A DNA stretch of 64,000 bases from assembly GCA_030683995.1 (NCBI GenBank), contig JAUXPH010000057.1, positions 27,876 to 91,875 on the forward strand, read 5' to 3'. The notes beneath the pieces were generated by a model that saw nothing but the letters and a program-made list of their open reading frames with translations, was not told where the DNA came from and ran no database searches. Positions 2,781 through 6,564 of the stretch are shown here, piece by piece; within the stretch, counting starts at the first letter, position 1, and each line of letters begins with the position of its first letter. The DNA comes from Lutibacter sp. GTDB lineage: Bacteria; Bacteroidota; Bacteroidia; Flavobacteriales; Flavobacteriaceae. The position numbers and the translations under genes are program-made.

Positions 2781-3788
2781 CTAGTTATTGTTATTATAGT
2801 AGACTTCCAGTTCATTTAAATAGGCTTGTTTTTTATTTTCTTCTAATAATGAATATTGAAAAGAATTTTTAGCCAGCTGGTAAAGATCAAATTTAGAAAG
2901 ATTTAAAGCCTCTTGAATGGCTTCATAATTTTTATTTATTTGTCCGCCAAAATAAGCCGGATCGTCAGAATTTACGGTAACCTTCAATCCCAAATCCATC
3001 ATTTTTTTTAACGGATGATTTTTTAAATCGTCCACCACCTGAAGCGCTGTATTTGAAAGCGGGCAAACCGTTAAGGCCATATCTCGGCTGATGATTTCCT
3101 GCACCAAAATTTCATCCTGCAATGAATTGTTGCCGTGGTCAATGCGTTTGATGCCCAAAATATCGATGGCTTCCCAAACATAAGCCGAAGAACCTTCTTC
3201 ACCGGCGTGTGCCAAAGGGATATAGCCTTCTTTTACGGAAGCTTCAAAGACCTTTTTGAATTTGGAAGGCGGATTTCCTTTTTCTGAAGAATCCAATCCA
3301 ACCGCAATAATTTTATCCTTAAAAGGAAGCGATTGTTTCAAGGTTTTAAAAGCAGCTTCTTCACTTAAATGGCGCAAATAACTCATTATTAATAACGAAG
3401 AAACACCCAAATTCTTTTTGGCATCAGCACAGGCTTTTGATATGCCTCTGATGACCGTTTCAAAGGCAATGCCACGATCGGTATGCGTTTGCGGATCGAA
3501 CATAATTTCTGTATGTCTTACATTTTGATCCGCACATTTTTGCAGATAGCTATAGGTTAAATCATAAAAATCCTGTTCGGTAACCAAAACGCCGGCGCCC
3601 TGATAATAAATATTTAAAAAATCCTGCAGGCAATTGAATTGATAGGCATCTTCAATCTCTTTTACTGAAGTATATGGAATCCTGATGTTGTTTCTTTGGG
3701 CTATTTTAAACATCAGTTCAGGCTCAAAAGAACCTTCAATGTGCAAATGCAATTCAGCCTTGGGCAATTTTGCTATAAATGTTTTCAT
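2781..3788 (-). CDS. add: Adenosine/adenine deaminase
   Basis: LPKAELHLHIEGS, AHAGEEG, RIDHG, CPLSN and NSDDPAYF amidohydrolase motifs. Confidence 0.94.
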   Translation of the reverse strand: MKTFIAKLPKAELHLHIEGSFEPELMFKIAQRNNIRIPYTSVKEIEDAYQFNCLQDFLNIYYQGAGVLVTEQDFYDLTYSYLQKCADQNVRHTEIMFDPQTHTDRGIAFETVIRGISKACADAKKNLGVSSLLIMSYLRHLSEEAAFKTLKQSLPFKDKIIAVGLDSSEKGNPPSKFKKVFEASVKEGYIPLAHAGEEGSSAYVWEAIDILGIKRIDHGNNSLQDEILVQEIISRDMALTVCPLSNTALQVVDDLKNHPLKKMMDLGLKVTVNSDDPAYFGGQINKNYEAIQEALNLSKFDLYQLAKNSFQYSLLEENKKQAYLNELEVYYNNNN

Positions 3789-3928
3789 CCTGCAAATTTA
3801 CATAAATCAATATTTTTTTTGGATTTTTGTTTGAAAATTTATGATGAAATTTATTTGGCCTATTTTTCATTAAAACAGGAATGAAATACCAATAATTTTA
3901 TTGGATTTGATCTGATTAAGATGGCATC

Positions 3929-3967
3929 AAAAAAAGCAATAAGGCGGCATAAAAGCGACCTTATTGC
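3929..3967 (-). terminator. Probable intrinsic terminator after the 3979-4344 gene
   Basis: GCAATAAGG...CCTTATTGC stem followed by a U-tract on the minus strand. Confidence 0.55.
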
Positions 3968-3978
3968 GCTATAAAATA

Positions 3979-4344
3979 TTAAGAAGCATTTGAAATTGAT
4001 GTAATTAAATTGAATTTAAATACGGCATTGCAGATTGGATTTTCTTCTAAATGATTGTGATTTATAACGGAGATTAATAGTTGTAATTCCGAATTATTGA
4101 ATTTAATAATTTTAGATTTAATCAGCAATTGGTCGTTTAAGGAGGCGTTTTTAAAAAGTTGCAATTTATATAAGCGAGGAATAGGATAGGTAAAATAAAA
4201 GTTATCAGAAATGATATTTGAAACAAAATTTTCTATTTCATTGTACAAGATATTCAGGTGTAATTCATTTTTTGTGTTGATGTCTTTTTTAGTTACGGTA
4301 AAATGTTTTTCCGGACTTTTATAAGTATTTTCTATTGTTTTCAT
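3979..4344 (-). CDS. Hypothetical protein, possibly hotdog-fold (thioesterase-like)
   Basis: 121-aa ORF; the F-x-V-x(3)-D-x-N motif, a central helix and then beta-strand periodicity resemble the hotdog fold (weak). Confidence 0.55.
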   Translation of the reverse strand: MKTIENTYKSPEKHFTVTKKDINTKNELHLNILYNEIENFVSNIISDNFYFTYPIPRLYKLQLFKNASLNDQLLIKSKIIKFNNSELQLLISVINHNHLEENPICNAVFKFNLITSISNAS

Positions 4345-4354
4345 ATTAATTCAG

Positions 4355-4468
4355 TTAAGGATTTTTAAATGGCAAACTGGGTTTGTGTATTTTGTTGACG
4401 GGTAAATTGCGCTGGCATTGCACCATAATTTCTTTAAAAATCTGCTGTAAAATGTTTAATTTTTTCAT
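4355..4468 (-). CDS. Small ORF (37 aa) MKKLNILQQIFKEIMVQCQRNLPVNKIHKPSLPFKNP
   Basis: Translated by hand; lies between the terminator hairpin and the hotdog-like gene, with a 10-bp gap to the next ATG. Confidence 0.45.
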   Translation of the reverse strand: MKKLNILQQIFKEIMVQCQRNLPVNKIHKPSLPFKNP

Positions 4469-4500
4469 AATGATTGTTTTTAATTAATAATTAGTTCATA

Positions 4501-4533
4501 AAAAAAGGTGCTTTTCGAAAAAAGCACCTTTTA
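4501..4533 (-). terminator. Intrinsic terminator, putative attenuator
   Basis: Minus strand reads AAAAGGTGCTTTT-TTCG-AAAAGCACCTTTT followed by a U run. Confidence 0.8.
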
Positions 4534-4561
4534 AAATTTGGTTTTATAATTTTAAATATCT

Positions 4562-4714
4562 TCAATAATAATTGAAAGTGCTTTTTTGTGTCCATACTTG
4601 TTGCTGTTGCACAAGATTGCAAATCGCATAACTATTTAATGCAACTGAAAACAAGGACTTCACATCCTTTAGAGTTTCCATCATAATAGTTTGTATGTTC
4701 AAAATTTCTTTCAT
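4562..4714 (-). CDS. Putative leader peptide (50 aa) MKEILNIQTIMMETLKDVKSLFSVALNSYAICNLVQQQQVWTQKSTFNYY
   Basis: Translated by hand; follows a TAATTTTG -7 element (4723-4730, minus strand) and precedes a terminator; its 3' end is complementary to the terminator 5' arm. Confidence 0.55.
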   Translation of the reverse strand: MKEILNIQTIMMETLKDVKSLFSVALNSYAICNLVQQQQVWTQKSTFNYY

Positions 4715-4828
4715 AATTGAATCAAAATTAAAAATTTATTTCAATAAACGAACATTATTTGAATAAAATATTAAATAATTACGCATTTTCTTGTAAATTT
4801 GCAGTCAAAATAAACCAATAGAAATTTT

Positions 4829-5095
4829 ATGGCAAGTATTAAAAATTTAAAAAAGGATATTAATTACGTTCTGGGAGATATTATTGAAGCGTGTTATACA
4901 TGGGAATTGTACAATCCTAAAGCCGGTTCAGCAGGGACAGAAGCAATTATAGATGAAGCAATTGAATCATTTGATGTTTTAATTGAGAAAGTGAATGTTA
5001 AAAAAGTTGAAGACAAAAAAGCTTATTTTAAGGCTATTAATTTAGAATTGGAAAAAACAGCCCACGATTTAATTGAAAAAGTTAATAAACTTTAA
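4829..5095 (+). CDS. Conserved hypothetical helical protein
   Basis: 88-aa ORF with a TAAATTTG -7 element at 4794-4801. Confidence 0.8.
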   Translation: MASIKNLKKDINYVLGDIIEACYTWELYNPKAGSAGTEAIIDEAIESFDVLIEKVNVKKVEDKKAYFKAINLELEKTAHDLIEKVNKL

Positions 5096-5214
5096 TTTTT
5101 ATTTAACATTTTTTAGGGGTGTTTTTTGTTAATAATGAAATTTATTGCGTAAATTCACACAATAATTAACGGAATACAACGTTCTTTAATCACCAACTAA
5201 AAACCTATTAACTT

Positions 5215-5427
5215 ATGGCAAGAGCAATGTTTGAGTACACTAAAACCATACTCGAAAAAGTCAGCTTTAATAAAGAGTTATTTAAAAAAGAATTGGAAAA
5301 AGCAGTAAACAGATTATTACCCTATGAAATAAAAGAATTATACTATTGGCTAAAGGAGTTCACAGTAAATAAACCGGAACTTCAATTGTGTTTAGTCGTA
5401 GTGGAAAATAAAAAAAGGAGCTTTTAG
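5215..5427 (+). CDS. Conserved small hypothetical protein
   Basis: 70-aa ORF (YTKTILEKVSFNKELFKKELEKA), a type of small protein I recognise from Bacteroidota. Confidence 0.75.
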   Translation: MARAMFEYTKTILEKVSFNKELFKKELEKAVNRLLPYEIKELYYWLKEFTVNKPELQLCLVVVENKKRSF

Positions 5428-5440
5428 GCTCCTTTTTTTT
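5411..5440. terminator. Bidirectional intrinsic terminator
   Basis: AAAAAAGGAGC-loop-GCTCCTTTTTTTT between convergent genes. Confidence 0.8.
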
Positions 5441-6371
5441 GTGCCAAAGGGCTAATTATTTGAACATCGTTAAAGGCGATAACGCCTCTTATTACACTAT
5501 CAATCACGTTTTTTAGCGTTTCAATTAACTGTATTTTTAATTGGGACTTGTGATAAATTAAACTTATTTCCCTGGCCGGAACCGGCGCATTAAACGGACG
5601 TAAATACTTTGTGTCTTTGTCGCCCAAGTCCAATGTTTGTAAATAGGGCAGCAAGGTCATACCCAAATCTTCTTTGGCCAATTTAATTAAAGTGTCAAAA
5701 CTGCCGCTTTGGATTTGAAAATGCTGATTTTTATAACCAATGGCACTGCATAAATTGATGATGTTTTCTTTAAAGCAATGACCGTCCTCCAATAACAGAA
5801 TATCTTCAATCTGCAATTCTTCCACAGCAATGGATTTGTTATTAAAAAGGCGATGTTCGGAAGGTACAAATCCAACAAAAGGCTCATAATATAAAACGCG
5901 CTCTATAATTTGGTCATTTTCCAGTGGCGTTGCGGCGATTGCCACATCTAAATGGCCGTCGGTCAATTTTCTCACCAGCTCTTCCGTGGTAATTTCTTCA
6001 ATAATGAGATTAACTTTCGGATATTTTTTAATAAATGTTTTCAAAAACAGCGGCAGTAAAGTAGGCATCACGGTGGGAATAATTCCCAATCTGAAATCGC
6101 CGCCTATAAATCCTTTTTGTTGGTCAATAATATCGTTTATCCGGTTGCTTTCATCAACAATAATTTTTGCCTGCTCAATAATCTTTTTGCCCACTTCGGT
6201 AAGCTGGATGGGCTTTTTGTTTCTGTTGAAAATTTGCGTGTCAAATTCCTCTTCAAGTTTCTGAATCTGCATACTCAAAGTGGGCTGGGTAACAAAGCAA
6301 TGTGTGGACGCTATTGTGAAGTTTTTGTGCTCTGCCACTGCCAAAACATACTTTAATTGTGTAATTGTCAT
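5424..6371 (-). CDS. oxyR: LysR-family peroxide-responsive regulator OxyR
   Basis: MTITQLKY HTH, VTQPTLSMQI, and LLEDGHCFK...LC with both redox cysteines; start moved to 6371. Confidence 0.93.
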   Translation of the reverse strand: MTITQLKYVLAVAEHKNFTIASTHCFVTQPTLSMQIQKLEEEFDTQIFNRNKKPIQLTEVGKKIIEQAKIIVDESNRINDIIDQQKGFIGGDFRLGIIPTVMPTLLPLFLKTFIKKYPKVNLIIEEITTEELVRKLTDGHLDVAIAATPLENDQIIERVLYYEPFVGFVPSEHRLFNNKSIAVEELQIEDILLLEDGHCFKENIINLCSAIGYKNQHFQIQSGSFDTLIKLAKEDLGMTLLPYLQTLDLGDKDTKYLRPFNAPVPAREISLIYHKSQLKIQLIETLKNVIDSVIRGVIAFNDVQIISPLAQKKGA

Positions 6372-6564
6372 AACTATCAATATTTGTGATAAAGATATTA
6401 AAACTATCAATAAAGATTATATTTATAAGGTTTTATTTTTTACCACAATTTGAAATAGTTAAGGGAAATAAATATGAACACAGCCAGCATATATTTCAAC
6501 AAAGAAATAGCTTAAATTTATTTAATCAAATAGGTTTAAGGTAATTATTTAAAACCTGCTTTTT

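Follow-up and report, generated by a model that had tools for sequence, protein, structure and literature searches.

A putative leader-ORF transcription attenuator ahead of an orphan hotdog-fold gene in Lutibacter and other Flavobacteriaceae

We studied a 64,000-nucleotide (nt) stretch of DNA from Lutibacter sp. (assembly GCA_030683995.1, contig JAUXPH010000057.1, positions 27,876 to 91,875 of the forward strand), called the window below; all positions count from its first letter. The element in question lies on the minus strand, where a candidate promoter is followed by a leader open reading frame (ORF) of 50 codons (ORF50), a strong intrinsic terminator and two further ORFs, ORF37 and ORF121. 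An earlier reading of this DNA from its letters alone (the sequence-only reading) had proposed here a leader-peptide attenuator with a glutamine- and tryptophan-sensing tract. Our analysis points to attenuation by a translating ribosome and away from the sensing of glutamine or tryptophan. The locus contains the following features.

4752-4723, minus strand: leader promoter, with a -33-like TTCG (4752-4749), an 18-nt spacer and the -7 box TAATTTTG (4730-4723)
4714-4562, minus strand: leader ORF of 50 codons, MKEILNIQ...QQQQVWTQKSTFNYY, with its ATG at 4714 and its stop codon UGA at 4564-4562
4713-4700, minus strand: candidate region 1 (anti-antiterminator strand), overlapping the start codon, from duplex energy and permutation
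4609-4598, minus strand: CAA-CAG-CAA-CAA, encoding Gln36-39, the sensing tract of the sequence-only reading, read from the sequence
4587-4573, minus strand: region 2 (strand 2), the putative antiterminator 5' strand AAAAAAGCACUUU(CA), codons K44-S45-T46-F47, from pairing and conservation
4576-4561, minus strand: small hairpin UUCAAU-UAUU-AUUGAA around the stop codon, nested in the antiterminator loop
4532-4500, minus strand: intrinsic terminator (regions 3 and 4) with a 13-base-pair (bp) stem, a UUCG loop and U7, from fold and conservation
4468-4355, minus strand: ORF37, a second mini-ORF of 37 codons ending ...KPSLPFKNP, 31 nt past the terminator and 10 nt before ORF121
4344-3979, minus strand: ORF121, gene for a 121-residue protein with a hotdog fold by structure prediction
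3967-3929, minus strand: operon-end terminator, GCAAUAAGG...CCUUAUUGC then U7, read directly from the sequence

The -7 box is present where the sequence-only reading had placed it and reads as a sigma-A type element. The TAnnTTTG box of Flavobacterium spans positions -12 to -5 (PMC9723704), and transcription is therefore predicted to start near 4718, which would leave a 5' untranslated region (UTR) of about 4 nt before the leader ATG. The 50-codon ORF was likewise confirmed, and its 3' end reads ...LVQQQQVWTQKSTFNYY. The terminator stands ahead of ORF37 and ORF121, as had been claimed. It is built from a 5' arm AAAAGGUGCUUUU (4532-4520, strand 3), the UUCG loop (4519-4516), a 3' arm AAAAGCACCUUUU (4515-4503, strand 4) and a U-run to 4500, and its hairpin energy is -14.8 to -15.2 kcal/mol. 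A simple consensus terminator scan did not detect the 4532-4500 hairpin because the stem absorbs part of the U-run.

An alternative pairing is available to the 5' arm. The segment AAAAAAGCACUUU at 4587-4575, in the last codons of the leader ORF, can pair with AAGGUGCUUUUUU at 4530-4518 over 13 bp with one G-U, just as the sequence-only reading had described. It is the best partner of the terminator 5' arm anywhere in the leader, with a duplex energy of -12.0 kcal/mol that 2 of 300 leader shuffles equalled or beat. The alternative folds that were also part of the earlier proposal were recovered computationally. In nascent RNA folded up to the terminator loop, the arm and strand 2 paired with an ensemble probability of about 1.0 and a stabilisation of 11 kcal/mol, and the probability was about 1.0 in nearly all Lutibacter loci as well. 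The minimum-energy fold of the full-length RNA has the terminator and not the antiterminator.

This architecture, with a terminator and a mutually exclusive antiterminator, recurs in 49 loci (26 of Lutibacter type and 23 from other genera), which represent Lutibacter and about 18 other genera of Flavobacteriaceae. The order within each locus is promoter box, near-leaderless leader ORF, terminator, usually a second mini-ORF (ORF2), and the hotdog gene. A profile search of 401 Flavobacteriaceae genomes with ORF121 found it in 25 genomes from 19 genera. Carriers include Formosa, Mariniflexile, Lacinutrix, Gaetbulibacter, Aestuariibaculum, Snuella, Mangrovimonas, Corallibacter, Gelidibacter, Pseudalgibacter and Flavicella, and the homologues are all annotated as hypothetical. 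A covariance model that runs from strand 2 through the terminator (R1) matched the window's genome once only, at this locus, and its weak matches in other genera proved to share the same architecture.

A TAnnTTT(G/A) box lies 5-8 nt ahead of the leader ATG in all inspected loci, and with this spacing a 5' UTR of 1-4 nt is expected in all 49. Near-leaderless mRNAs account for roughly 4-5% of transcripts in Bacteroides and Flavobacterium (PMC7366714, PMC9723704). The leader ORF has 47-51 codons in Lutibacter and 34-52 overall, and the second mini-ORF of other genera typically ends in PLLLYP. One locus (L083; L numbers denote loci) has no ORF2, and its hotdog ATG is found 28 nt past the terminator. 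Leader and terminator stay linked to the hotdog gene over about 19 genera, even after ORF2 loss. An Rfam scan of positions 3700-5300 with E up to 10 gave chance-level matches only (best E at least 0.4, far under the gathering thresholds), and a literature search found no mention of the leader element.

Conservation was unevenly distributed over the RNA. The terminator was the sole consensus structure returned by RNAalifold for both groups (26 Lutibacter and 18 short-leader sequences); 98.7% of its cells are paired and two of its pairs carry compensatory changes. The same analysis gave no conserved structure within the ORF body, which argues against a riboswitch-like leader. Strand 3 carries a GUGC core that is invariant in 49 of 49 loci. 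Its partners drift: strand 4 occurs as GCACC, GCGCC, GGCACC, GCAUC or GCACU, and strand 2 as GCACU, GCAUC, GUACU or GCACC. To judge from the sequences, an invariant GUGC with drifting, wobble-compatible partners is what would be expected of a strand that has to pair with two others. The small hairpin that encloses the stop codon (4576-4561) has 82% of its cells paired and is seen in the nascent-RNA fold, and at three of its six pairs double-sided changes occur in one locus or more (for example L034: UUCAAC/GUUGAA).

Strand 2 itself is held at the level of nucleotides. Its conserved motif is GCA(C/U)C(U)UU, with the core GCACU in Lutibacter and GCAUC elsewhere. The G of this motif falls in codon phase 2 in 31 loci, in phase 3 in 16 and in phase 1 in 2. 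It translates as K-S-T-F in Lutibacter and, for many other genera, as M-H-L-E-stop; some loci have S-I-F or S-I-L and one has A-S-F. A 1-nt indel in L036 alters the last seven residues, and 24 nt there are identical to L037; an A-to-G change in L031 turns Ser to Gly yet keeps a G-U pair. Strand 2 is conserved in all three codon phases, and constraint therefore acts on the RNA. Its position is also kept. The best duplex between strand 3 and the whole leader lies 3-21 nt before the stop codon in 43 of the 49 loci, and strand 2 lies 0-22 nt from that codon over all of them.

We then compared this with the evolution of the leader ORF. All 49 loci keep the frame open, and the spacing between its ATG and the -7 box is fixed. 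Not one in-frame stop occurs in the 26 Lutibacter-type loci, compared with 4.2 and 3.3 stops on average in the two alternative frames. Counts of variable sites at the three codon positions were 20/13/24 in the leader, 11/17/12 in ORF37 and 26/14/63 in ORF121. The ratio of nonsynonymous to synonymous substitution rates (dN/dS) was 0.4-0.5 for the leader and 0.10-0.34 for ORF121, and the leader dS was less than half of the ORF121 dS in the same genome pairs. In the other genera, the proportion of synonymous differences (pS) was 0.15-0.47 in seven of eight leader pairs and 0.72 in the eighth, against 0.53-0.73 in the hotdog gene. The corresponding ratio of nonsynonymous to synonymous proportions (pN/pS) was 0.6-1.6 for these leaders and about 0.4-1.6 over both groups.

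These values suggest that the leader peptide evolves almost neutrally. An open frame combined with flat codon variability therefore points to selection on nucleotides and on the openness of the frame, as in a regulatory leader ORF, and we infer that the leader is translated. The sequence-only reading had looked to homologues for conservation of the ORF and of the pairing; this was borne out for the ORF frame and strand 2 (49 loci) and not for the peptide, which is nearly neutral, nor for covariation in the antiterminator.

Several other candidates for this ORF were considered. A non-coding small RNA was rejected on the open frame in 49/49 loci. A functional micro-protein is disfavoured because variability is flat over the codon positions, pN/pS is near 1 and the motif does not depend on the frame. 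An arrest peptide of the TnaC, SecM, MifM or Erm leader type is disfavoured as well, as the C-terminal motif is kept at the nucleotide level across three frames; the interval between this motif and the stop ranges over 0-22 nt, unlike that of a fixed-distance arrest motif. The ligand-induced arrest offered by the sequence-only reading is not favoured on the same motif evidence and on pN/pS of about 0.4-1.6. A mid-ORF hairpin, AAGGAU...GUCCUU, was also dropped, with only 69% of its cells paired.

A third helix may form between the start of the transcript and strand 2. Within the window, UGAAAG (4713-4708) can pair with CUUUCA (4578-4573), and UUUU (4704-4701) with part of an A-run (6+4 bp). At -6.2 kcal/mol, this 1:2 duplex ranks first among 28 leader windows (shuffle p 0.02). 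In the short-leader genera, AAGAUGUCAUAUA pairs with UAUAUGCAUCUU, and the 1:2 energies are -7 to -13 kcal/mol. There are genus-specific variants of this pairing, CCAAGG with CCUUG and GAUGAGCACA with UGUGCAUC, and about 18 of the 20 short-leader loci have their segment complementary to strand 2 among the first 25 transcribed nt.

The 5' ends also appear matched to their own strand 2. In the short-leader genera, the mean energy was -9.12 kcal/mol for a 5' region and strand 2 of the same locus and -7.12 kcal/mol across loci; for Lutibacter, the means were -5.86 for own and -5.01 kcal/mol for other-locus combinations. Neither difference was reached in 5000 permutations (0/5000 each). We take this as moderate evidence for a preference in cis, in a test that is inflated by relatedness. 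The predicted layout in the short-leader genera is the classical one of 1:2, 2:3 and 3:4 helices, and in Lutibacter the 2:3 helix is predicted to be strong and the 1:2 helix weak.

Considering the paired strands, the open but unconstrained leader frame and the spread of the arrangement, we propose that the element is a ribosome-dependent (leader-ORF) transcription attenuator that controls ORF37 and ORF121, with a probability of roughly 0.6. The anatomy of the locus suggests both that termination would be regulated and in which direction it would respond. The outcome would be set by how far the leading ribosome has advanced at the time when the terminator is being transcribed by RNA polymerase. 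A ribosome at the last codons or the stop (4564-4562) would cover, or would just have unwound, strand 2 (4587-4573). Strand 3 (4532-4520) would then pair with strand 4 (4515-4503), and the transcript would end at about 4500. The leader stop codon lies 26-36 nt ahead of the GUGC core of the arm, and the terminating ribosome would therefore not hinder the hairpin.

A ribosome lagging in the first 38 or so codons would have the opposite effect. Strand 2 would pair with strand 3 (11-13 bp), no terminator would form, and a polymerase that reads through would continue into ORF37 and ORF121. If the leader were not translated at all in Lutibacter, strand 2 would be free and read-through would probably follow too. 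Pairing between the start-codon region and strand 2, though weak, may shift such untranslated RNA back to termination, and this pairing is much stronger in the short-leader genera. The signal would thus be the progress of translation relative to transcription.

A wider form of this proposal is tentative, and we give it a limited chance of being right. The element might be a generic meter of translation progress, in which a long, near-leaderless ORF times the ribosome against RNA polymerase and, together with the Pro-ended mini-ORF, turns on an orphan thioesterase-like enzyme once translation is slowed or uncoupled. Stress, cold or ribosome inhibitors might act as triggers. If true, this would be a family-wide stress device of marine Flavobacteriaceae with no described counterpart in Bacteroidota.

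A number of observations weigh against the attenuator. We found no strict double-sided covariation for the antiterminator, and its score over 25 sequences was not above that of shuffles. A central A-to-C change breaks a pair in L038/L078 and in L040, and changes at the helix end cost several end pairs in L022, L043 and L044. In several short-leader genera, the 2:3 helix has 7 bp only and a predicted probability below 0.15. In loci where 19-22 nt separate strand 2 from the stop codon, part of strand 2 would remain exposed when a ribosome halts at that codon. Lastly, a degenerate TAAATTTT box lies 13-15 nt ahead of ORF2 in 11 short-leader loci, although not in the window's clade, and may be an independent weak promoter.

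This box and the lacking compensatory covariation would fit two independent units, a possibility that we consider unlikely. ORF50 would then be a small-protein gene with its own terminator, ORF37 and ORF121 would be transcribed from a non-consensus promoter in or near that terminator, and the alternative pairing would be functionless. The strength of the terminator (13 bp, U7, -15 kcal/mol) would suit a unit that ends there, and ORF50 and ORF37 are called as genes in some records. However, the ORF50 peptide is nearly unconstrained although its frame is kept open, and the conservation of strand 2 extends over three reading phases. Spacers from the terminator to the next ORF are 18-45 nt long and contain TAnnTTTG in 0 of 49 loci, by a motif test with start sites unmapped; the absence of a separate consensus promoter before 4468 is thus upheld by this test. 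Leader and terminator are also found attached to the hotdog gene in about 19 genera, even where ORF2 is gone.

A different possibility is that a protein, small RNA or metabolite binds the leader RNA, for instance at AAAAGCACUUU or at the CAACAG block, and sets the fold, with translation of the ORF being secondary. Synonymous conservation throughout the leader, with pS or dS about half of that of the neighbouring gene, would agree with such factor-dependent antitermination, as would the conserved nucleotide blocks beyond the three helices. We nevertheless regard it as quite improbable. The terminator is the only conserved secondary structure in either group, there is no Rfam match, and if the ORF were untranslated, it would be difficult to account for a frame of 34-52 codons that is open in 49/49 loci and begins at a constant spacing from the promoter.

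The specific proposal of the sequence-only reading, a sensor of glutamine (and tryptophan) starvation, was likewise given little credence. Uncharged tRNA-Gln would stall the ribosome at CAA-CAG-CAA-CAA, the antiterminator would be free, and the operon would be induced. Gln is the only invariant internal residue of the Lutibacter leaders, QQ is found at codons 17-18 in most other genera, and the Gln motif is always in frame, unlike strand 2. With Q39 in the A site, the coordinates place the end of the footprint just before 4587. The genome encodes a glutaminyl-tRNA synthetase, so charging of tRNA-Gln would follow free glutamine, and even two codons can suffice, since trpL functions with only two Trp codons.

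However, the run of four Gln codons is confined to the window's clade, and only Q38 is invariant across Lutibacter. Several Lutibacter lineages have a single Gln codon (KRQS, KLQH), and the two short-leader loci L081/L082 have none at the corresponding place. A single ribosome at QQ in the short-leader genera would leave both region 1 and region 2 unmasked, and the antiterminator would not be favoured. The nucleotides around the Gln codons (CAACAG) are as strongly conserved at synonymous sites. The Trp residue is not conserved, and relatives have C, Y, P, F or H instead. From the coordinates and a standard footprint, half of the antiterminator strand would already be covered once the Trp codon had entered the A site of the ribosome. 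The hotdog-fold target ORF121 has no tie to nitrogen metabolism or to that of Gln or Trp. The sensing roles assigned to the Gln4 tract and to Trp thus find no support in the relatives.

Least probable is that the terminated leader transcript of about 215 nt is itself the product, as a trans-acting or dual-function small RNA or a micro-protein, since it is never found apart from the hotdog gene in the searched genomes, occurs once per genome and has no evident target, even though its promoter box and terminator are strong and its nucleotides highly conserved.

Around the Gln codons, a nucleotide block (window 4612-4595, minus strand, GCAACAACAG; elsewhere UCACAACAGUGGAA, e.g. L062 codons 15-20) is conserved, also at synonymous sites. 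None of the three helices explains it, and it could be a polymerase pause or binding site.

For the genes that the proposed attenuator would control, we looked for domains and folds. Pfam, NCBIfam and PADLOC gave no match for ORF50, ORF37, ORF121 or two small divergent ORFs described below (ORF88 and ORF70), and a profile search of PDB sequences with ORF121 gave none either. The AlphaFold2 model of ORF121 has a mean predicted local distance difference test score (pLDDT) of 84.8 and shows a hotdog fold, in which an antiparallel sheet wraps a long central helix. When compared with the PDB by Foldseek, its top matches were thioesterases (template modelling score about 0.64, E about 1e-6, probability 1.0). 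We predict from the model that ORF121 is an orphan hotdog-fold, thioesterase-like (4HBT/PaaI) protein. The Asp of the Lutibacter KKDIN motif is not conserved across genera, and other genera have Val, Ile or a similar residue in place of the Lutibacter Asp21; invariant are the Asp within the NDxL motif and K-N-A...D (KNAxLND). The family forms 140 clusters in the protein collection at E <1e-5, all hypothetical, without a Pfam domain and from Flavobacteriaceae only.

The frame of ORF37 is open in nearly all loci, without the periodicity typical of coding sequence (11/17/12). In L036 only 14 codons of it are left, and L083 lacks it altogether. Its Pro-rich C-terminus is conserved (PSLPFKNP, IPIPIRINP, and YHNYxLxPLLLYP in other genera) and ends about 10 nt before the hotdog ATG. 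ORF37 may be a second, translational control ORF.

The block of three ORFs is syntenic in every recovered Lutibacter locus, with 3' neighbours that vary. On its 5' side, the Lutibacter loci have Dps, a LysR regulator resembling OxyR and a pair of small divergent ORFs. In the window, the latter lie on the plus strand (88 aa, 4829-5095, and 70 aa, 5215-5427) with their own TAAATTTG box at 4794-4801. They adjoin the OxyR-like LysR gene (5424-6410, minus strand) and, in relatives, also a Dps/ferritin gene. An antisense trace of the gene start suggests that the 88-aa gene stands beside the leader in other genera too.

Three Lutibacter loci from at least two species carry a MITE-like insertion (resembling a miniature inverted-repeat transposable element) of about 160 nt, located 6 nt past the terminator U-run (L007, L025:1380-1560 and L035:2140-2330). 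Its terminal inverted repeats are GAACTCATCTTGACTTTTTT and AAAAAAGTCAAGTTGAGTTC, and the equivalent place in the window is just 3' of 4500. The contigs of two assemblies (G018 and G011) break at this spot.

Although attenuation by leader ORFs is a well-understood mechanism in amino-acid operons, examples that govern other genes are few, as are those described in Bacteroidota. The element described here occurs in at least 19 genera, is absent from Rfam and is unusual in its near-leaderless start, its leader of 34-52 codons and its lack of an amino-acid theme. It provides a handle on an orphan hotdog-fold family that is annotated as hypothetical, as the inducing condition would point to the role of the enzyme. 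With one motif in three frames, the leader also serves as a worked example of how conservation at the RNA level can be told from conservation at the peptide level in a small ORF.

Among known systems, leader-peptide attenuation has been reported upstream of amino-acid operons of Flavobacterium psychrophilum (PMC9723704). The element shares with trpL, hisL, pheL, leuL, thrL and ilvL a mini-ORF that comes first, followed by competing helices that share one strand with an intrinsic terminator. As in the trpL type, the stop codon would put a terminating ribosome on or next to strand 2, and there is a candidate 1:2 helix, clearest in the short-leader genera. Leaders of the trpL type have 14-32 codons, whereas those found here have 47-51 (34-52 overall). 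Also unlike that type, there is no run of codons for a single amino acid, the mRNA is nearly leaderless and the target is an orphan hotdog gene rather than a biosynthetic operon. The Lutibacter 1:2 helix is weak, and untranslated RNA is predicted to read through and not to super-attenuate. With no conserved codon cluster and a target that appears to lie outside Gln or Trp synthesis, transport or charging, the sequences do not place the element among the amino-acid-specific attenuators.

Parallels may also be found outside biosynthesis. The mgtCBR operon of Salmonella (mgtM, mgtP) has no sequence relation to the element, and is a lead by analogy: it too has two consecutive mini-ORFs before the structural gene. 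The second mini-ORF here has a Pro-rich tail (PSLPFKNP, IPIPIRINP or PLLLYP) near the start of the structural gene. In Firmicutes, leader-ORF attenuators that respond to antibiotic or translation stress (bmrB-bmrCD, vmlR and Listeria lmo0919) were found by Term-seq. They control resistance genes of the ABC-F, efflux or methyltransferase kind, and nothing here points to resistance. The Lutibacter element would nevertheless resemble them in having a leader without an amino-acid theme, in reading the progress of the ribosome and in controlling a non-biosynthetic target.

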